64,000 nt of DNA from Armatimonadota bacterium (lineage in GTDB: Bacteria; Armatimonadota; SYMT01), in contig JAWLHY010000003.1 in NCBI GenBank assembly GCA_041690135.1, positions 32,001-96,000 on the forward strand, given 5' to 3'. Of the stretch, positions 38,053 to 50,491 are shown one piece after another (position 1 is the first letter of the stretch; every line of letters starts with the position of its first letter). The notes beneath the pieces are model-generated. The model worked only from the letters and a program-made list of their open reading frames with translations. It was not told the origin of the DNA and did no database searches. The position numbers and the translations under genes are program-made.

Positions 38053-39063
<1,011 letters not shown>

Positions 39064-39215: not shown

Positions 39216-41047
39216 TCAAGCGGAGGCATGGCTTCCGCCCCGGGTTAGTCGCCGCGCTTCTCCCGAATGTACCCCCGCCCCGTTGGTCCGCCCAGGTCCG
39301 CAGCCAGGCTCCTCTTCCAAGCTCGTTTCCGCGTTCTGCAGCGAGTACATTCCGGCGTATAACCCTCCTGCCATCAGCAGCTCGGCATGGGTCCCCGCTT
39401 CCGCGATGCGGCCTTCGTCCAGGACCACGATCCGGTCGGCCCACCGCGCCATGGAGAGCCGGTGGGTGATGATCAGGGTAGTCCGGTCCTGCGCCAGGCG
39501 CTGCAGCGCCTGCTGGATCAGCCATTCCGACTCCGGCTCCACCGCGGAGGTCGGCTCGTCTAGGATCAGGATCCGGGGATCGGCAAGGAAGGCGCGGGCG
39601 ATGCAGAGCCGCTGCCGCTGGCCTCCGGAGAGCCGGACGCCGCGCTCGCCGACCTCCGTATTCCAGCCTTCCGGCAGCTCCTCTTCGATGAACCGGAGCG
39701 CGTTCGCCGCCGCCGCCGCGGTACGGGCTTCCTCCAGGGTGGCTTCCGGGCGGGCATACCGTACGTTCTCCAGCACCGTGCCGGTGAAAAGAAACGGCTC
39801 CTGCAGCACCATCCCGATCTGCCGGCGCAGGCTCTGCAGGGTGGCCTCTCGGAGGGCCCGGCCGTCGATCCGCACGCAACCGGCCGTGGGATCCCAGAAC
39901 CGGGGAAGCAGGTTCACGAGTGTGCTCTTGCCGCCGCCGCTGCTCCCCACGATCGCCACGACCTCGCCGGCCGCCACCTCCAGATCGATCTCGCACAATA
40001 CCGGCCGCGAGCCGTAGGCGAAGTGGACCCCCTCGAAGGTCACCCGGCCGGAAAGGCGGGGCAGCTCCACGGCCCCCGGCGCGTCGGCGACTTCGACCGG
40101 CGCATCGAGCACCTCGAAGACCCGGGCCGCCGCCGCGTTGCCCCGCTGGAACAGGTCGTTGACCTGGGCCAGGCCGTACACCGGCTCCAGCAACTCGCCG
40201 GCATAGGCGCGGAACGCCACCAGCCCCCCCCAGCGTGAAGCGGCCCTGGAGAATGAGCCAGGCGCCGGCCGCGATGGAGAGGGTGGTGGTGACGTGCCCC
40301 AGCAACCGGAGCGACGGATAGAAGAGCGACCGCGCGTTCAGCGCCTGCTGCTCCGCTTCCCAGTGCTCGCCCGTCAACCGCCGGAAACGGACCGCCTCCT
40401 GCGGTTCCTGCGCGAACGCCTTCACGACCAGCGTTCCCGCGAGCAGTTCCTGGAGACGGGCGCTCACATGGCCGAGCCTCCCGCGGGTCGTGCGGTACAG
40501 GTCCCGGATCTTCTCGTTGAAACGGCGGACCAGCACCCACACGATCGCCACCGGCGGCACCACGATGGCGGCGAGGAGCGGGTTCAGCAGCATGATACAG
40601 GTTCCAATCACCAGGAAGGCATAGACATTGGCTAGCACCGACTGCGTGATCCGCAGCGCGACCGACTGCAGCAGGTCCACGTCGCCGACGACCCGCGCGA
40701 TCAGGTCTCCGGACCGGTGCTGCTGCAGATAGCCCACGGATTGGCTCTGCAGCTTCCGGTGGACCTCGTTCCGCAGGTCCCGCACGAACGCCAGGGCGAC
40801 GCGCTCCAACAGGTTCTCCCGCAGCGCGTCGAGGGCGGTCCCCAGCAGGTATGTCCCCAGCATCACCGCCGCCGCGCCGGCCAGGCGGTCGGCGCGCCTC
40901 GCCAGCACCACTTCGTCCACCAGGTACCGCCAGATCCACGGGTGGGCCAGGGAAAGCGGCGTCGCCACCGCCATGCACAACAGCCCGAACCCCGCCTGCC
41001 AGCGGTAGGGGCGAAGGTAACCGAGGAGCCGGAGATAGGTCTTCATC
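39216..41047 (-). pseudogene. ABC exporter (TMD+NBD) frameshifted in a G8 run
   Basis: TMD from MKTYLRLL; after FTLGG the frame shifts at the C8 run 40224-40231 into ORF 39216-40220 (GSSGGGKST, LSGGQRQR, ILDEPT); removing one G restores FTLGGLVAF. Confidence 0.85.
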
Positions 41048-41130
41048 AGAAACCACCTGGGAGTGGGGCCGCGTTGAGGGAGGTCGTACAGCATGGCGGA
41101 TAGCTCTTCTTCCACCGGACAAAAACACGG

Positions 41131-41159
41131 TTGACATCCCTCGGCCCTTATTGCATACT
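41131..41159 (+). promoter_or_regulatory. Sigma70-type promoter of the plus-strand lasso operon
   Basis: TTGACA-17 bp-CATACT. Confidence 0.6.
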
Positions 41160-41171
41160 CATTGCAGTAAG

Positions 41172-41183
41172 TATACACACTGA
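41172..41183 (+). promoter_or_regulatory. TATACACACTGA motif, copy 1
   Basis: Identical 12-mer at 52053-52064 (-); 9-mer core at 53032-53040 (-). Confidence 0.55.
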
Positions 41184-42120: not shown

Positions 42121-43968
42121 ATGCCGGCATGGGTGGGTGTGTTGAACCTGGATGGCTCCCCACTGGAGGAGGCGGACCTTCGCCGCCTCCAGTGGGCCGC
42201 CGCGGACCTGCGGGGTTCGGCTGTGAGCCTCTGCGCCCCGTCGGGATCGCCCTGTGGAATGGCGATCGCCTCCTGGGAGCACGGGCCCAGGATCGCGGGC
42301 TGGCCGAGCGTTCCGGCTCCCCAGGACGGAAATCATCTGCGCGTCGTGTGCGAAGGCTGGATCGACGCGGAGGGAACGACCAGGGTGACCGGGGCGACCG
42401 GGGAAGGGGAAGGCTCCGCGGAGATCGTTGCGGAGGCTTACCGCAAGTGGGGCGACGGTTGCCCGGCACACCTGCACGGGGATTACGCCTTTGCCCTCTG
42501 GGACGCCCGGGAGCAGCGCCTGTTGTGTGCCCGCGACACCGGCCAGACGAAGCCGTTCTTTTACGCGGTGTGCGGCCACCGCTTCCTCTGGGCCTCGGAT
42601 CCGCGCCCGCTCCTGGAGCACTGGCCGCTCTCCCGTGACTTCGATGTTCCCTATCTCACCACTTACATGGTGATCGCCGACCGGAACTGGGAGCGAACAC
42701 CCTACACCGCCGTCCGGAAGCTGTCGGGAGGGCATGCCCTGGTGGCGGAGCGTGGCGGCGTACGCTCCTGGCGCTGGTGGGAGCTTCCCGAGCCCGGCTC
42801 CCTCCGCTACCGGCGGGCGGAAGAATACCAGGAGCACCTGCGGGAGCTTCTGGAGCAGGCGGTGCGTGCCCGGCTCCGGGGAGCCGAGCGGGTCTCCGTG
42901 GCCCTCAGCCGGGGGATCGACTCGGCCTCGATCGCCGCCGTGGGCGCCGCCGCCTTCCGGCAGGAAGGCGCGTCCCCTTCCCGCCTGCACTGTGTGACGG
43001 TAAGCTGCACGGACTATCCGGAGGCAGACGAGAGCCCGGATGCCCGCCGCATCGCGAAGCGCCTGGGGCTGCCGCACCAGGTGGTGCCCGCCACCCCGGA
43101 GGCCTGGGATGCCCGTGAGGCACTGGCGCTGCTTGCCGAGCCGAGCGGCATCGTCGGCTACTGGGGCATCTGGGAGGCAATCGCGGCCGGCTGCCTCGCC
43201 ACCGGCAGCCGCGTGCTGCTTACCGGGCAGGGGGGCGAGCTGGTTTCCTGCGACTGCTACCTTTCCCGCCTCTTCCGCGCGAAGCGTTACGGGGAGGTCG
43301 CGCGGGAGCTGTGGCGGTGGCGCCGGGCCGGCGCTCCGCACGCGCCCCTGCTCCGGTTGGAGCTGGCGCAGCTCCAGAACCCGGTGACCCACTGGGCGCC
43401 CGTGGACGGCCTGGAGCCCTACGATTGGCTCCGGCACCCCGAGCTCTGCCGGATGGACATGGAGTGCCTGGGGCAGGCGCACCCTATCCTCCGAAACAAC
43501 CACTACGACTTCGTGGAGGTCGCGCAGGCCACGACCGGGCTCCAGCCGCTCTTCACCCGCCACGGGATCGAGCTGCGCCATCCGCTGCAAGACCGGCGGC
43601 TGGTGGAGTTCGCCTACAGCCTCCCCGTGGAATGGAAGCTGCCGGCGAAAGGTCCTGGGAGTCGCCTGCTTGACAAGCCCCTCCTGCGCCGCGCCCTGGC
43701 GCCGGAGCTGACCCTGGAGCTGCCGAAACCTAGCGCGAGCGTCCGGCGCATGCTGGGACGGCATCGGCACCGGTACTGGACGGCGTTCCGGGACCTCCTC
43801 CAGGACCCGCCGGAGGCGCTGGCCGCGGTGGCCGACATCGATCGTTTGCGTGAGCGCTCCGTGGACCTGCTGCAAGATCGCGGCGGAAAGCGGTTCGTGG
43901 CGCTCACGGCCATTCTTGCCTGGTGGCTCGCAGCCGCGGAACAGGCAAGGCATCCCGCCGTTGTTTGA
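42121..43968 (+). CDS. Lasso peptide cyclase (asparagine synthetase-like)
   Basis: No N-terminal catalytic Cys; GDYAFALWD, CARD, LSRGIDS, LLTGQGGE, RHPLQDRRLVEF, KPLLRRAL; next to precursor, RRE and B2. Confidence 0.9.
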   Translation: MPAWVGVLNLDGSPLEEADLRRLQWAAADLRGSAVSLCAPSGSPCGMAIASWEHGPRIAGWPSVPAPQDGNHLRVVCEGWIDAEGTTRVTGATGEGEGSAEIVAEAYRKWGDGCPAHLHGDYAFALWDAREQRLLCARDTGQTKPFFYAVCGHRFLWASDPRPLLEHWPLSRDFDVPYLTTYMVIADRNWERTPYTAVRKLSGGHALVAERGGVRSWRWWELPEPGSLRYRRAEEYQEHLRELLEQAVRARLRGAERVSVALSRGIDSASIAAVGAAAFRQEGASPSRLHCVTVSCTDYPEADESPDARRIAKRLGLPHQVVPATPEAWDAREALALLAEPSGIVGYWGIWEAIAAGCLATGSRVLLTGQGGELVSCDCYLSRLFRAKRYGEVARELWRWRRAGAPHAPLLRLELAQLQNPVTHWAPVDGLEPYDWLRHPELCRMDMECLGQAHPILRNNHYDFVEVAQATTGLQPLFTRHGIELRHPLQDRRLVEFAYSLPVEWKLPAKGPGSRLLDKPLLRRALAPELTLELPKPSASVRRMLGRHRHRYWTAFRDLLQDPPEALAAVADIDRLRERSVDLLQDRGGKRFVALTAILAWWLAAAEQARHPAVV

Positions 43969-44015
43969 CGGGCGGCGGAGATCGCTCCTCTACGTCAAGA
44001 TAGGAAACCTGTCCG

Positions 44016-44174
44016 ATGAACAAGCAGAAGAAGCAGTATGAAGGAATCCGTCTGGAAGCATACGGCTCGCTGACCGAGCTGGTGCTCGACCGCTGCAACG
44101 GCGGCGACGGCGACTTCAACACCGTCCATGGCGGCGAGGACTCGAGCCCGCTGCCGTTCCAGACCAACAAGTAA
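44016..44174 (+). CDS. Lasso peptide precursor (52 aa, not in ORF track)
   Basis: MNKQKKQYEGIRLEAYGSLTELVL-DRCNGGDGDFNTVHGGEDSSPLPFQTNK; Y-17, L-12, G-8 register; Asp at core 7 and 9; AGGA RBS. Confidence 0.85.
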   Translation: MNKQKKQYEGIRLEAYGSLTELVLDRCNGGDGDFNTVHGGEDSSPLPFQTNK

Positions 44175-44195
44175 ACCCGGAGCGGCAAGCAGCGT

Positions 44196-44259
44196 CCGGC
44201 CCCTCTCGTTGACCCCGCGAGGGGCCGGCACTTCCGGAGACCGGGGAAACCCGGTCTCC
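44196..44259 (+). terminator. Twin GC hairpins after the precursor gene
   Basis: CCGGCCCCTC...GAGGGGCCGG (44196-44228) and GGAGACCGGG-GAAA-CCCGGTCTCC (44236-44259); no strong U tail. Confidence 0.55.
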
Positions 44260-44301
44260 ACCCATCTCATTGTAGATTGAAACGATCACCCGAGCAAAAC
44301 C

Positions 44302-44598
44302 ATGATGGAGCTGGACCAACCCTTTGTGCTCTCCCCCGCCGTGCAGGATACGGAGGCGGACGGCGATCTCGTGCTGCTCGATCTCGAGCGCGAGCAGTTC
44401 TTCGGGCTGAACGAGGCGGGCGCCCACCTGTGGCGCGGCCTGGCGGAAGGACGCACCCCGCGTCAGATCATCGCAGAGCTGGCCGAGTGCTACGACGCAC
44501 CGGAAGAGCGGCTGCGGGCGGATGTGCTGGCCACGCTGGAACAGTTCGCGACGCGCGGATGGGTGACCCCGCAGGCCTCGCCCGCAGTGGGAGGGTAG
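44302..44598 (+). CDS. PqqD-family RiPP recognition element (B1)
   Basis: DLVLLDL..FFGLNEAGAHLW..IIAELAECYDA..DVLATLEQF. Confidence 0.92.
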   Translation: MMELDQPFVLSPAVQDTEADGDLVLLDLEREQFFGLNEAGAHLWRGLAEGRTPRQIIAELAECYDAPEERLRADVLATLEQFATRGWVTPQASPAVGG

Positions 44599-44603
44599 CC
44601 GGG

Positions 44604-45104
44604 ATGATCGGCACTCTCCGCCGGGCATGGCTCTTCACCCGGGCCTATGCGCAACTGCTCCGGATCCAGAGGGTCCTCCTCCAGCGGGGCTTCTCCGGTC
44701 TCCAGGCGGATTATCTCCTTCCCTGGAAGCCGGGGAGCCGGCCCGTCCGCGCGCAGGACCGCCTGGCCCAGGAGGTGGAATGGGCCGTGGAGCAGGCCTG
44801 CGCCTGGCAACTCCGGCGCACCGTCTGCCTGCATCGCGCCACCCTCGCCTACAGCCTTCTTCGCGCCATCGGCGGCCGGCCCCGCTTCGTGATGGGCGTG
44901 GCCGGCCGCCCGTTCGGCTCGCACGCCTGGGTCGAGCTGGAAGGAGAGCCTTTTGCCGACGGCGAGATGGAAGCCTCTCGCTATCATTTCCGGCCGATCC
45001 TCTCACTTCCGGCGACTGCCCGTCTCAACCCGTCAGGCGGAGAGGAACCGCGATCACCGCTAGCGCGTTGTAATAGCTCAGCACCCGCGCGTCGCGGCGC
45101 ATGA
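44604..45104 (+). CDS. Lasso peptide leader peptidase (B2)
   Basis: VCLHRA...MGV...PFGSHAWVE; GGGAGG RBS; 3' end overlaps the convergent gene by 80 bp. Confidence 0.92.
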   Translation: MIGTLRRAWLFTRAYAQLLRIQRVLLQRGFSGLQADYLLPWKPGSRPVRAQDRLAQEVEWAVEQACAWQLRRTVCLHRATLAYSLLRAIGGRPRFVMGVAGRPFGSHAWVELEGEPFADGEMEASRYHFRPILSLPATARLNPSGGEEPRSPLARCNSSAPARRGA

Positions 45105-46572
45105 GCGTCAGGAAGAGGCGGGCCGGGCTTCCCGCGCGCAGCAGCGGCACGAGCGAGGGCCAGGCGATCCGGACCCGCACTTCATACATGGGATGACCGG
45201 GCTGCACCACCGCATCACCCGGTCCCGCGAGCCGCATCTCGTCGTCTCCTCCGAGCTCAACGGAAAAGCACTCCCCACAGCCTTCGCCGTCTAGCCGCAG
45301 GCGGTACTCCAGACGGGGGTCGGTCAATCGCGGCAACCGCAGCGCCAATCCCAGGCTACCTTCCTCGCGCCAGGCGCAGAGTGCCGGGAGGTCGAAGTCC
45401 TCGTCCGACGCATGCACGAGGAGCCGGTCCAGGCCTCCCGGCGCCGGTGGAACCGGGCCGCGGCTCCACGGCCCCTCGGCCCGCTCGACTCGCAGCCTGC
45501 TCCACCCTACCTGCTCCAGCAGGTCCATCGGTTCGGGAGCGAGGAGAGCGGTCTCCGGCGCCCCCAGGTCCACCCAGGCACCCCGGAACCCCAGGCAGCG
45601 GGGATAGCTCCGGCGCGGCCGGCCCGGTACCGGGCCGCTTCCGGAGAGAGGGTCCTCACCGCAGAGCCGGCCCAGCAGGCGCCGGGCGAGGTCGACCGCG
45701 TCGCCGGCGCCGAACTCCCACACCAGCTCGCCGAAGCGGCCCGCGTCGAAGTCCGGCAGCCGGAACAGGTCGCGGATCTCCGCCAGCAGTCCCAGCCGGA
45801 CCGGCTGCGCGAGCAGGAACGGCGACTGGAGGTACTCCTTGAACTCGTGCGCGCAGAGGATGAGCGCGGCCATTTCGGGCCGGGGGACGCGGAAGCCCTC
45901 CAGGTCCGGAGTTCGCGCCCGGGTCAGGTGCGGCAGCAGATCCGCGAACCGGAGTTCTCTCTGGCGGGGCATGGCGTGAGGCTGAAGCCAGATTCCCGGG
46001 TTCCGCTCCGGCGTGAGATCGAGGTCATGCATCCCGGGCGGATAGGAGTAGACCGGAAAGTAGCGGTGAATCTCCAGGGCCACACCGCCGCGCCGGAAAC
46101 TTCCGAGCTCGTGCCGCCATTCATAGTCGAACGCGCCGGTGTAGCCCAATGCCTCCAGTGCGGGCTGAAGCGTTTCCACTTCCGAACAGAGGAGGTCGAC
46201 GTCGCCGCTGTAGCGCAGCCCCGCCTGATTTCCGGTCAGAGCGTAGGTAGTCATCCCCTTGATGACCACCGGACGGTGCTCCGGTGTGAGAACGGTGTGA
46301 AGCTCCCGCAGGGCTCCCACCTGACGCTCGTAGTTGGCCAGCGCGGCGGCCCGCTGGGCGCGCATCGCCTGGAGCAGCGCCGGGGTGCACCACGGGGGGA
46401 CCTCTCCCTCCTTGACCCGCCGCAAGAACCGCCCGGCGAGCCGGTGCCGGACCAGCAGATCACAAAGATGGCCGGGGTCGAGACCGGCCTCCACCGGCGC
46501 CTCTTCCCGCAGGCCGGCGGCCCAGCAAAGCGCCTCGAGCCCGGGCGGGTAAGTCTCCTCCGGGGCCCTCAT
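45025..46572 (-). CDS. Nucleotidyltransferase (NTP_transf_5-like) with C-terminal extension
   Basis: VVIKG...RYSGDVDLL...LEALGY...LEIH; family common in lasso clusters. Confidence 0.82.
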   Translation of the reverse strand: MRAPEETYPPGLEALCWAAGLREEAPVEAGLDPGHLCDLLVRHRLAGRFLRRVKEGEVPPWCTPALLQAMRAQRAAALANYERQVGALRELHTVLTPEHRPVVIKGMTTYALTGNQAGLRYSGDVDLLCSEVETLQPALEALGYTGAFDYEWRHELGSFRRGGVALEIHRYFPVYSYPPGMHDLDLTPERNPGIWLQPHAMPRQRELRFADLLPHLTRARTPDLEGFRVPRPEMAALILCAHEFKEYLQSPFLLAQPVRLGLLAEIRDLFRLPDFDAGRFGELVWEFGAGDAVDLARRLLGRLCGEDPLSGSGPVPGRPRRSYPRCLGFRGAWVDLGAPETALLAPEPMDLLEQVGWSRLRVERAEGPWSRGPVPPAPGGLDRLLVHASDEDFDLPALCAWREEGSLGLALRLPRLTDPRLEYRLRLDGEGCGECFSVELGGDDEMRLAGPGDAVVQPGHPMYEVRVRIAWPSLVPLLRAGSPARLFLTLMRRDARVLSYYNALAVIAVPLRLTG

Positions 46573-47540
46573 GCCGCCGCCTCTCCCCGGCTCAAACCGG
46601 CGTCGTTGGCCCTGAGCGCCAGGGAGCGGATGACGGATACCAGCTCGGGCAGGATGTCGAACCGCTTCGGATACTCCAGGGTATAGACGGGTACCGCCCG
46701 CGCGACCGCCGCGTACTGCGCCATGACGTGTCGCGTCTCAAAAGGGGGCGCGGAACCGAGCACCGCCATCGAGTTCCGCATCAAGAGGGGAACGACCCGG
46801 GCCGCCGGCTGACGCTCGGCGCGTACTTCGGCGGCCTCGGGCCGGGGCTGGAGCGCGAACACGGCGGCCAGGGGAGCCGCCTGGACGGCCCGGCGCTCCG
46901 GGGGCACGGGATACCACCACTTGTCTCGCCCGTTTCCCACTTCCGGCATTCCGCCGCCGTCCACGCCGTACCGGTCGAGCAGTTCGCGTCCGACCTTGGG
47001 GTAAAGGGAAACGGCGGGAACGGCAATCGCCCGCCCGTGCTCCAGGCGCACCGGAACCGCGTCGTCATTGGCGAAGAGCCCGCCCGCCTCCAGCAGCGCC
47101 CAGAGCGTCGTCGATTTGCCCGTTCCCGAAGGGGCGAGGAGGGCGACACGGCGATCCTCCAGGTCCACCGCGGCGGCATGGAGAGACAGATACCCCCGGA
47201 TAGCTGAGCAGAGCCCCAGCCCCATTCCGAGGACGTAGGTCGCGGCCTCCGCGTGGTGCTCGGGCGGCGCGTCCACCCCGATCCGCTCGCCGCGCTCGTG
47301 AACGTGCAACCGGAAGCGGTCGCGCACCCGCAGGAGGAAACCCTCCTCCTGCCGGTACCACGCCAGGGCCCCACCGAAGTAACTGGCGAGGCAATCCGTC
47401 TCCACCGCGGGCGGCAGGTCCTGAAACTCCACGCGGAGGGGTTCGGAGCCGCCGGCGCCCTCCGCGGGACGACAGCGCGCGTCGCACGGGAGCACCAGGT
47501 CGCTCTTCACCTGGAACTGCTGAATGAAATAATGTTGCAT
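46569..47540 (-). CDS. HPr-kinase-like peptide kinase
   Basis: LHAAAV, APSGTGKST, ANDD; ATGA overlap with nucleotidyltransferase. Confidence 0.88.
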   Translation of the reverse strand: MQHYFIQQFQVKSDLVLPCDARCRPAEGAGGSEPLRVEFQDLPPAVETDCLASYFGGALAWYRQEEGFLLRVRDRFRLHVHERGERIGVDAPPEHHAEAATYVLGMGLGLCSAIRGYLSLHAAAVDLEDRRVALLAPSGTGKSTTLWALLEAGGLFANDDAVPVRLEHGRAIAVPAVSLYPKVGRELLDRYGVDGGGMPEVGNGRDKWWYPVPPERRAVQAAPLAAVFALQPRPEAAEVRAERQPAARVVPLLMRNSMAVLGSAPPFETRHVMAQYAAVARAVPVYTLEYPKRFDILPELVSVIRSLALRANDAGLSRGEAAA

Positions 47541-47558
47541 TTTCAATCGATGCGAAAA

Positions 47559-48326
47559 CTACGGCACCTTGGTCAGGGTGAAGAGGTTGTCCTGCTTTGC
47601 GTCGCCTCGGCCCACGCCCGGCGGAAGCAGGTCGCCGAGGCGGTTCTGCCGGTGGAAGTCGGTAATTGCCGCGCTGCCGCCCACACTGTCGCGCGGCGTC
47701 ACCCGGACCGCCTTCGCATGGCCGTCGTACCACACCACGTTGGCCCACTCGTTGTGCCTGCCGTGCGCGGTCGGCGTCCCGGCGAAGGAGGGCTGCCGCA
47801 GTGTGCGAGAGCGGGCCAGGGCGCCCGTGGCCGGCGAGCGCCAGCCGGTATCCGCGAGGATGATTGTATCCGTCGGCGCTTCGAAGGCCGCCTGGGAGGG
47901 CGGGGGAACGAACCCCGCCCCGTAAACCATGATGTTGAGACCGTAGGCCAGGCGGTAGTTGTTCGCTACCGGAATACCCGCCGCCGAGGGACAGTCCACA
48001 ATCGGCGCGCTCTTCATATACGGCTGGATCAGCCCCTGGGAGATGTCGAACTGCCCGGTGCTCGCGTCGTAGACGGAGTCCCAGTAGTAGAAGAGATTTC
48101 CGGTCGGGTCGGTGCCGCCGTTCACCACGCAGAACGTCTCGTCGTAGTCCTGGGCGTACATCAGCCAGGCCGTGCCGAACTGCTTCAGGTTGGAAAGGCA
48201 ACTGGTGGAGCGGGCGGCTTCCCGCGCCCGGGCGAACACCGGAAAGAGGATGGCGGCCAAGATGGCGATGATGGCTATCACGACGAGCAGTTCGATCAGC
48301 GTGAAGCCGCGCGCGGATCTGCGCAT
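47559..48326 (-). CDS. Prepilin-type / DUF1559 protein, paralog of 41217-42089
   Basis: [36 protein letters not shown]; [13 protein letters not shown]; H-X9-DGH; AGGAG RBS. Confidence 0.92.
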
Positions 48327-48385
48327 GGTAGGTCTCCTGAATGAATGGCCGCTCCGAACGGGAACGGCAGGATGGAAGGCAAAGC

Positions 48386-50491
48386 TTATTCCCGGCACAT
48401 GCCCAGTTCCCGCATCTTCGCCAGCACGTCGCGACCGTGAGAGCTCACGCTTACGTTGCGCGTGATCCAGCGCACGATGCCGCGACGGTCGATCAACACG
48501 GACTGCCGGGTGGCGAGCTCGCCGGAGCCGTTGGCGGCGCCGTACAGGACGGAAAGGTTGCGGCTGGTGTCCGAAAGGTAGCGGAACTCGGTCCCCAGCT
48601 CGCCGGCAAAGGCGCGCTGCTGGTCGCCGGCATCCACGGAAACCGCCAGCACCGTCGTGTCGTTCTTCTCGAAGTTCTGGCGCTCGGCACGGAGCGACCC
48701 CAGATGGTTCCGTCAACCATCGGTGAAGCACTTGGGAAAGTAGGTCAACAGCAGGTGCCGCCGGTCGCGGAAATCGGCGAGCCGAACCTCCGCGCCGGAG
48801 GCGTCGGTGAGGGTGAACTCGGGCGCGGGCTCCCCCACCCGGAACGCGGGCGTCGGGTCGGGCGCGGCGGTGCGGAGCAGGGCCCGTAGCGCCGCGGCAT
48901 CCTGCGGCAATTCCCGGCTGCGGCGGACGAAGCCCGCCCGATCGACCAGCAGGAGCGCGCCCGCCGGCGGCACCCGCGAGAGCAACTCGCCGGAGGGGTC
49001 GTGGAGGGGCACCAGTCCCGGAGCAGCGGAGGCGCGCCGCACCGGTTGGGGGGAGACCAGAACCGGCTCCATCCCGGCGGCGCGCCAGCGCTCGATCGTC
49101 CCTGCGTCCATCGCCTCCAGAATCGGGGGCAGCGTCTCGGGCTGCGCTACCGCCACCAGGGCCAGCCCGCGCCGGCCGCGCATCGATTTGGAGCTCCACT
49201 CCGCGGCGATCCCGGCGTGCGGCAGCACAAAGTCCGGAAGGGGCGCGCCTACCGGCAGGGGTGCGGGGGACTTCCGGCCGAGCCCGGCGGTGAGGAGCCT
49301 CTGCCCCTTCTCCACGTCGCGCTCCTCGCGCACCAGGAGGGCCAGGTGTTCCAGCCGCTCGACCCGGCCCCGGAGGGCGCTCCCTTCCTGAAGGTATCCG
49401 GCGGTCCGGATGAGGTGGTCTCCGGCCGACATTGGAATGACTGCCAGCGGCCTTCCCAGCCGTCGGGACAGCTCCGTCACCCGCGCCTGCTGTGGCCGGA
49501 ACTGGTCGATATCAACGAACGGGGCGAGCCAGCGGCCTTCGAGGAACACCCCGTCGAACCGGCCCGTGCCGAGCCACGCGTACCAGTCTTGCGCCGTGCG
49601 CACGTCGTGGAAGTCGCGGTCGGTGTAATACTCGGCGTAGCCGTTGATCCACACCCGGCCGCCGGTCCGGCGCTTCCGGTAATGGTCCGCCAGCTCCACC
49701 GCCAGCCGTCGCAGCGCGTCGCGCCGGGCGTCCACCCAGGCCCGCAGGACCGGGTTGAGCCGGAGCCCGGCGATATTGTCGAGCCCGAAGTCGATGGGGT
49801 CGAGCCCGTGCTTCCGTGCGAACTCCGCGCGGGCCAGCGGGTGGAATCCGTAGATCTCGCGCTCGCTGTAGCGCACATCGAGCACGACACCGGCCGCTTC
49901 CGGAAAGCGCTCCGCCAGCTCGCTCAGGAGATCCGCCAGGGCGCGCCGGGTCTCCGGATGGCTGGGCGAAGCGTAGCGGGCCTCCGGTCGCGGATCGGCG
50001 AACCCGTACTGGTTCAGTTCCTCGAGCCGCGGATGACGCTGAAAGAGACCCTGCGGCCGCTCAACGCCGGTCTTCTGCCAGGCCAGCACGTCCAGTCCCA
50101 GGTACACCGGCACTCCCGCCGTCTGGGCGGCGCGGAGCAGCTCTCGCAGGCTGCGCTCGTCCCGCTCTGGGTCGGGGTTCCGGTCCCGGAAGAGGGAAAC
50201 TTGCGTGCCGTAGAAGCAGCGGCCGTCATCGAATACCGGCACAATAAGACCGCCGACCTTACTGCCGGAGGCCCGGAACGGCTCCAGGGCCCGGCCCCCG
50301 GCACACTGGGAGCGCAGCCACTCCCAATCCGGGGGACGGGAGTCGAGGGTCGAGTGCCCCAGCGAAAGCCAGACCGCCGGGTCGGGGCTCGTCTTCGGAG
50401 GGGCGGGAGCAGCGCCGGCCGCGGGCAGCAGCCGGGTCGCGAGCAGGCCCGCGGCGAGGCCCAGGGGAAGGGGATGCAGGGGAGTTCGCAT
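48386..50491 (-). CDS. Probable selenoprotein: GH-like TIM-barrel domain + degenerate redoxin + Sec-peroxiredoxin
   Basis: ORF ends [12 protein letters not shown] (48713-48715) at the peroxidatic Cys position and continues in frame RNHLGSLR...VLAVSVD...LSD...LIDRRGIVR to TAA at 48386. Confidence 0.82.
48677..48703 (-). promoter_or_regulatory. SECIS-like hairpin
   Basis: CUGG-GGU-CGCUC-CGUGCC-GAGCG-CCAG starting 9 nt after the UGA. Confidence 0.6.

Follow-up and report, generated by a model that had tools for sequence, protein, structure and literature searches.

The systems closest to the locus described here are lasso peptide clusters that encode a kinase. In the passages of Duan 2023 on which we draw (PMC10368454), Ile(-2) was validated in the precursor BsfA, and precursors with Ile or Val at -2 were predicted in three other groups; these passages report Ile/Val(-2) leaders only from kinase-encoding clusters and call the variant "rare but not uncommon". 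They also state that Tyr33 of FusE, the RRE of fusilassin, is suspected to contact Thr(-2), and that phosphorylation of the tail has so far been seen only at the C-terminal Ser. Supplementary figures S14, S16 and S19 of the same paper may show similar Val(-2) precursors and B1 alignments, and Kretsch 2023, to judge from passages that cite it, may already contain a Tyr/Thr(-2) covariance. In pseudomycoidin the terminal residue is phosphorylated and then glycosylated, as described in passages of Zyubko 2019 (PMC6993621). As for the first core residue, a passage of the palassoptide paper (PMC13632552) reports that a large-scale analysis found every residue except Pro at position 1.

Here we analyzed a lasso peptide locus from an Armatimonadota genome (the source genome, G000) within a window of 64,000 nt, which is the whole stretch of DNA examined. 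A small gene of this locus, gene A, probably encodes a precursor that a split-B, kinase/nucleotidyltransferase-associated (paeninodin-like) cluster converts into a class II-type lasso peptide, by a pathway proposed below.

Organization of the gene cluster

The genes and sites around gene A were assigned as follows; G196 is a second genome of the phylum that carries the same gene set.

38053..39063, - strand: O-methyltransferase, Methyltransf_2 plus dimerisation domain (Pfam/NCBIfam); cluster membership uncertain
39216..41178, - strand: ABC exporter, MsbA-like, membrane domain plus ATPase, in two frames (Pfam/NCBIfam)
41131..41159, + strand: promoter-like site TTGACA-17-CATACT, 5' of C within the divergent region (consensus match only)
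42121..43968, + strand: lasso cyclase C, asparagine-synthase-like (Pfam/NCBIfam); start ATG 42121 chosen by alignment with the G196 homologue, ORF open from 41587
44196..44259, + strand: two G+C-rich hairpins (44196-44228 and 44236-44259) in the A-B1 spacer (folding)
44302..44598, + strand: B1, PqqD-type RiPP recognition element, 98 aa, with Phe33 (Pfam/NCBIfam, alignment)
44604..45104, + strand: B2, transglutaminase-like leader peptidase, 166 aa from ATG 44604 (NF033537, 61.7 bits, cut-off 33)
45025..46572, - strand: NTP_transf_5 nucleotidyltransferase, the "N" gene of paeninodin-like clusters (Pfam)
46569..47546, - strand: HprK-related kinase, with 43% identity to its G196 counterpart

The gene order is C-A-B1-B2 on the + strand, with the kinase and nucleotidyltransferase genes on the opposite strand. 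Gene A begins 47 nt behind the cyclase gene and is followed by B1 after 127 nt, and B2 comes next. The cyclase and B1 scored above the Pfam cut-offs and below the lineage-specific cut-offs of NCBIfam, and B2 scored above its NCBIfam cut-off. The 127-nt A-B1 spacer folds with a minimum free energy of -57.3 kcal/mol (z -4.03). A search for intrinsic terminators 3' of gene A gave no match, the hairpins there being without a U-tract; they are possibly an attenuator or an RNA stabiliser. The O-methyltransferase gene is missing from the G196 cluster, and its tie to the lasso peptide is therefore uncertain. Just outside the cluster, on the - strand at 47559-49199 of the window, lies a gene whose product has DUF1559 and an N-terminal methylation motif of the prepilin type.

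The two frames of the ABC exporter gene meet at a run of eight G (8 C on the + strand, 40224-40231). The change from the membrane-domain frame to the ATPase frame takes place at this run, with zero aligned profile positions lost. The frameshift may be a sequencing or assembly error or may be real, and if it is real, the cluster may be decaying.

The precursor gene

Gene A is a short ORF with the following features.

44016..44174, + strand: precursor gene A, 52 aa, ATG start, product MNKQKKQYEGIRLEAYGSLTELVLDRCNGGDGDFNTVHGGEDSSPLPFQTNK
44016-44087, + strand: leader, residues 1-24 (register from alignment)
44088-44171, + strand: predicted core, residues 25-52, with the stop codon at 44172-44174
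44082..44090, + strand: predicted junction codons, Val(-2) Leu(-1) / Asp1 (cut inferred from alignment)
44106-44108, + strand: codon of core Asp7, unconserved (alignment)
44112..44114, + strand: codon of core Asp9, candidate ring acceptor, invariant (alignment)

Counting back from Asp25 in MNKQKKQYEGIRLEAYGSLTELVLDRCNGGDGDFNTVHGGEDSSPLPFQTNK, Tyr8 is residue -17, Ile11 is -14, Leu13 is -12, Gly17 is -8, Val23 is -2 and Leu24 is -1. The core has 28 residues, with Asp at positions 1, 7 and 9, a single Cys at position 3 and a C-terminal Lys. In all of this the earlier, sequence-only reading was accurate: it had given the coordinates and the register of Y-17, L-12 and G-8, and the translation bears out the Ile at -14 for Pro, the Val at -2 for Thr, and the core with Asp1, Asp7, Asp9 and one Cys that it had listed. 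It had also called the precursor hidden, which does not hold for gene calling: the exact protein is present in a public protein collection with NCBI as its source, indicating that gene callers do not miss gene A.

The GC content of gene A at the three codon positions is 0.585/0.358/0.849. Neighboring genes have third-position values of 0.77-0.88, and overlapping alternative frames differ. A putative ribosome-binding site, AGGAA, lies 9 nt 5' of the ATG, and the stop-to-stop frame contains no earlier in-frame start.

Relatives of the peptide and the cluster

A direct search found one peptide that was 86% identical to the gene A product (P0010), and a cluster look-up added P0019. Profile searches added P0011 and P0012, and then P0013, P0014, P0017 and P0018; two of the seven proteins at E ≤ 0.001 in the profile search were long repeat proteins and were rejected as precursors. 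A peptide search at the level of the order, covering eight genomes, returned the genome's own copy only, plus chance-level matches (E 0.27 and 0.88). A single-sequence cyclase search of genome contigs gave no relatives, and an alignment-based search was then used. Among 401 genomes of the phylum, the cyclase search found a single full-length homologue, in G196, with 44% identity. Its cluster runs in the order C, A, B1, B2, kinase (43% identical) and nucleotidyltransferase, and its A gene has the ribosome-binding site AAGGAGG.

The same peptide as in G196 is encoded on a metagenome contig (L119). Among the 165 bases of the A gene the two sources show three differences, against 93.9% identity over 3857 nt of the cluster. 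All three differences are third-position and synonymous, indicating purifying selection on this sister, G196-type A gene.

The gene A product and nine related peptides from genomes and metagenomes were aligned, without gaps over the leader/core junction (alignment A4). A search of the 401 phylum genomes with A4 produced matches at E ≤ 0.01 for 14 genomes, of which only the source genome and G196 contained the full peptide; the others matched in the leader only. Near relatives in soil and root metagenomes retain the peptide with few changes. Those colinear with the locus over the end of C, A, B1 and B2 include record 9 of X2, with 207 differing letters and 13 gaps across 43018-45004, and record 25 of X4, with 53 differing letters across 43438-44174. 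Four soil or root sequencing runs contain small shares, and no RNA runs were found among the sequencing runs listed.

These data bear on two readings in which gene A would have no function. That gene A is merely a chance ORF is a reading to which we give a negligible probability. The Pfam and NCBIfam searches with the peptide matched no family, as would be expected of such an ORF, but the codon-position GC, the ribosome-binding site, the synteny, the nine homologues and the synonymous-only change in the sister gene effectively refute it. Very unlikely, too, is a decaying or silent remnant that yields no product because the exporter is broken and Pro(-14) is lost. The frameshift at the G8 run of the ABC gene would fit a remnant, but a frameshift in a homopolymer may be an assembly error, and the A, B1, B2, C, kinase and nucleotidyltransferase frames are all intact and have normal codon bias. 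The Ile at -14 would fit it as well, but BsfA with Ala in place of Pro(-14) still underwent cleavage, according to passages of Duan 2023 (PMC10368454). Also in favor of a remnant, those passages say that the bsf cluster gave no mature lasso peptide in five hosts. The retention of the peptide in soil and root metagenome relatives also argues against decay. We conclude that gene A is a genuine lasso peptide precursor.

Other precursor-like genes

A scan of the source genome's 160,204 stop-to-stop frames (25-200 aa) with the family profile gave four matches at E < 0.01, gene A included, and two of the others lie directly 3' of other lasso cyclase genes. A second precursor, at C4:143317-143508 (L221:7318-7509), lies 43 nt behind another cyclase gene; its leader ends in ...AVTQ, and its core begins with DGGGAFVD.... 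Here Asp1 follows a leader with the canonical Thr(-2), and gene A is therefore not alone in having an Asp1 core. A third C-A pair, at C9:288845-289147 (L220), has a core beginning with GGNGAFSD... and no B2 match nearby, and has as its neighbors genes for a CHAT/TPR protein and for a protein of very large size with SdrD repeats. At C1:72983-73453 (L219:8984-9454), a leader-like motif, YQAPCLRRLGNIADVTK, is followed by a Gly-rich stretch without Asp or Glu at positions 7-9; this ORF lies beside two large S8 subtilase genes, not lasso genes, and may belong to another peptide system.

Elsewhere in the phylum there is a paralogue with Glu1 (L211). In the public collection, a protein of 382 aa (P0016) contains five tandem lasso-leader-like motifs, PYxAPxLxDHGxxxxxT, and another (P0015) contains eight leader-region-like repeats.

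Leader/core boundary and predicted cleavage site

Of the leader motif Y(-17)xxP(-14)xL(-12), gene A has the Tyr and the Leu, and also Gly(-8), with Ile replacing Pro. In A4, Tyr(-17), Gly(-8) and core Asp9 were invariant (10/10), Val(-2) was found in nine of the ten peptides (Thr in P0017) and Leu(-1) likewise in nine (Met in P0010). Pro(-14) was retained except in the gene A product, P0010 and P0019; with Pro in the more distant relatives, Ile(-14) is a recent change. Core position 1 was variable (D, D, D, N, N, N, N, A, S, H), and it was preceded by a conserved [LVI]-V-[LM].

We searched the small ORFs of 198 loci with a profile built from the first three peptides. Dozens of precursors with a canonical YxxPxLxxxGxxxxxTx leader were found directly behind cyclase genes. 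The family set collected here comprises 69 distinct precursors, including the 10 subfamily peptides and one likely false match. Position -2 was Thr in 55 of them, Val in 13 and Phe in one, the last being the likely false match. Pro(-14) was present in 64, and the 17-residue spacing from Tyr was common to the set. Core position 1 was A in 13, G in 13, S in 9, T in 7, N in 6, K in 6 and D in 5, with other residues in the rest. Given the shared register, other members have Ala, Gly or Ser exactly where the gene A product has Asp1. The comparisons thus support a leader of residues 1-24 and a core from Asp25 as the best-supported cleavage site. The sequence-only reading had placed the cut by register and had proposed a comparison with precursors from homologous clusters. 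That comparison backs its placement: the junction is ungapped over ten peptides, the first core residue varies behind V-[LM], and the wider family has the same column after Thr(-2)-x.

A genuine precursor cut one or two residues later would form its ring between Arg1 and Asp8 or between Cys1 and Asp7, using the same invariant Asp. Rings may have 7, 8 or 9 residues and Cys is acceptable as a first residue, as far as the passages of the literature drawn on here go, and each of the ten A4 peptides has Cys, His or Glu at predicted core position 3. A later cut is nonetheless unlikely, since it would place Asp/Asn or Arg/Leu at -2, would break the fixed 17-residue spacing from Tyr that the 69 family precursors share and would leave the conserved V-[LM] pair without a role. 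The calculated neutral monoisotopic masses are 2945.263 for the dehydrated Asp1 core (2963.274 for its linear form), 2830.237 for the Arg-start core and 2674.135 for the Cys-start core.

Likely ring acceptor

With the cut before Asp1, the gene A product has two Asp or Glu residues at core positions 7, 8 or 9, namely Asp7 and Asp9. The sequence-only reading had named both as possible acceptors; both are there, but they are not equal, and conservation points to Asp9. Asp9 is present in all ten A4 peptides, and Asp7 occurs only in three close peptides, the gene A product, P0010 and P0019, so the likely acceptor is Asp9 and not Asp7. Closure on Asp7, which would give a 7-residue ring after the same cut, would suit those three peptides, but Thr or Ser stands in its place in the other relatives, and Asp at position 9, found in 44 of the 69 family precursors, is the commonest arrangement in the family. 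We consider a ring on Asp7 quite unlikely. In the tail that would be threaded through a ring closed on Asp9, Phe10, His14 and Phe24 are candidate plugs.

Val(-2) and Phe33 of B1

B1 belongs to the same PqqD fold family as TbiB1 and TfuB1, whose RRE-leader complexes have been solved (PDB 5v1u/5v1v and 6jx3), and it aligns with them over 73-81 residues (E 3.2e-07 and 0.0022). Phe33 of B1 sits at a β-strand Tyr of these two RREs, and we infer from the alignment that this Tyr corresponds to Tyr33 of FusE.

Over 87 distinct B1 proteins, the Phe33 column contained Tyr in 64, Cys in 18 and Phe in 5. Among precursor/B1 pairs in the loci, the rows of which are not independent lineages, all 28 pairs with Thr(-2) had Tyr in this column, and the three pairs with a Phe-bearing B1 (the gene A cluster, G196 and L056) all had Val(-2). 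The L056 core has no Asp or Glu at positions 7-9, which makes its register doubtful, and in L170 and L193 a Val(-2) precursor has Tyr in the nearest B1, on the opposite strand. With these exceptions, the missing acceptor in L056 and the dependence among rows, the pairing of Val(-2) with Phe33 is only suggestive. For three more Val(-2) candidates (L217, L191 and L178), no B1 partner was found in the stretches examined. A further one, in L208/L218, is probably not genuine and overlaps with a different precursor ORF.

Co-folding of B1 with the precursor gave a score of 0.46, the best of three controls scoring 0.00, with contacts between runs agreeing to at least 91% and a partner pLDDT of at least 51. 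Of the 157 solved complexes, 116 attained that mark, as did 2 of 215 mismatches, and the range up to 0.60 held only 18 of the 157 and both mismatches. Since like complexes have been solved (5v1v, 6jx3), the pass may reflect memory. The co-fold gives weak backing to binding of the leader by B1.

Kinase and candidate phosphosites

By-eye comparison showed that the kinase has seven of the eight motif residues of BsfK (H...GxxGxGKS...DD) at identical spacing, with Ala for Gly163. Against NCBIfam HprK_rel_A it scored 27.4 bits, under the cut-off of 200, and a PDB sequence search with it returned nothing significant (best E 0.048, an unrelated transporter).

In A4, core position 12 was Thr in nine peptides and Ser in one, Ser19 was found in 9/10, and the Asp-Ser pair at positions 18-19 also in 9/10. 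A C-terminal Ser was confined to three G196-type peptides, and the near relatives P0010 and P0019 end in Ala. The gene A peptide has neither a C-terminal Ser nor Ser3, which leaves the conserved Thr12 and Ser19 as candidate phosphosites. Across the loci with a kinase homologue, 43 distinct precursors were found; the last residue is Ser in 14 of them, Thr in 7 and some other residue in 22. Many of the kinase-locus precursors without a terminal Ser (L052, L136, L047, L096, L090, L137 and others) end in Arg-Thr plus one residue (NRTF, RRTR, SRTA, NRTI). Such endings hint at the penultimate Thr as the phosphosite in these groups.

Proposed pathway

In the preferred reading, that gene A encodes the precursor of a lasso peptide of the paeninodin-like type, the leader would be bound by B1 via Tyr(-17), Leu(-12) and neighboring residues. 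B1 and B2 would jointly cleave after Val(-2)-Leu(-1), with a hydrophobic contact between Val(-2) and B1 Phe33 standing in for the usual pairing of Thr(-2) with Tyr, and the cyclase would link the α-amine of Asp1 to the side chain of Asp9, giving a 9-residue ring and a 19-residue tail. The HprK-like kinase probably phosphorylates a conserved hydroxyl away from the C terminus, Thr12 or Ser19, and the nucleotidyltransferase may extend from that kinase-added phosphate. The product would be exported by the ABC transporter. Several points count against this explanation: Pro(-14) of the B1 recognition motif is Ile here, the cut site is placed by alignment, the pairing of Val(-2) with Phe has exceptions, 18 of the 87 B1 proteins have Cys in the Phe33 column, the exporter gene is frameshifted, the kinase has Ala for Gly163, and the peptide lacks a C-terminal Ser.

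A more far-reaching proposal is that these peptides form a distinct branch of phosphorylated lasso peptides, with leaders in ...[LVI]-V-[LM] and cores of the form X1...D9...T12.HGGxDS19. In this branch, the hydrogen-bonded Thr(-2)/Tyr pair of the S2 pocket would have been swapped as a unit for the hydrophobic Val(-2)/Phe33, the internal Thr12/Ser19 would be decorated by the kinase and the nucleotidyltransferase, and the gene A product would be the first Asp1-initiated lasso peptide. We put this forward as a tentative and rather doubtful possibility. If true, the Val(-2)/Phe33 swap would be a natural compensatory change that reveals how B1/B2 read the cleavage site.

Comparison with known systems

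The sequence-only reading had called the leader and core non-canonical. Val(-2) and Asp1 are real, but Val/Ile(-2) was already published in 2023, and Glu1 and Asn1 are documented as first residues. A Val/Ile(-2) leader and a first residue other than Gly are thus both on record, and neither feature is new as a kind. A literature search for "lasso peptide" with "Asp1" as whole words found no paper. The locus extends the small Val/Ile(-2) set by a conserved, uncharacterized lasso subfamily from a phylum that has been little studied. It is also an example of a cluster in which a kinase accompanies a substrate lacking both known phosphosites. The natural pair of Val(-2) and a B1 Phe provides a test case for the role of the RRE tyrosine in cleavage-site recognition. 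For genome mining, rules that require Thr(-2) and Gly1 would under-score such a real precursor.

Palassoptide A2, with a Glu1-Glu8 ring (PMC13632552), and metanodin, with Asn1 (PMC12670498), resemble the gene A peptide in that a charged or amide first residue gives the α-amine of the ring, and the G196-type sister peptides begin with Asn, like metanodin. The passages drawn on from those two papers, however, describe leaders with Thr(-2), and rings that differ in size or acceptor from the one predicted for the gene A peptide.

Paeninodin and pseudomycoidin (PMC6993621, PMC13381572) share with this cluster the HprK-like kinase and NTP-transferase, the MsbA-like exporter and the split B1/B2, to go by passages of those papers. 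According to the same passages, they are modified on a C-terminal Ser, whereas the gene A peptide ends in Lys, and paeninodin-type leaders have WxxP (PMC13381572), whereas the gene A leader has Y. The gene arrangement differs as well, being C-A-B1-B2 here with the kinase and nucleotidyltransferase genes on the other strand.

The bsf cluster of Bradymonas sediminis and the predicted precursors from Acidobacteriaceae and Sphingomonadales, as given in passages of Duan 2023 (PMC10368454), have a hydrophobic residue at -2 as found here. The bsf cluster is likewise described there with a split B1/B2, a distant HprK-like kinase and N gene, Tyr(-17), Leu(-12) and a phosphosite other than a C-terminal Ser, but it comes from a phylum other than Armatimonadota. 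In those passages BsfA has Ile(-2), Pro(-14), a Gly1-Asp8 ring and a phosphorylated Ser3, whereas the gene A product has Val(-2), Ile(-14), a predicted Asp1-Asp9 ring and Cys3.
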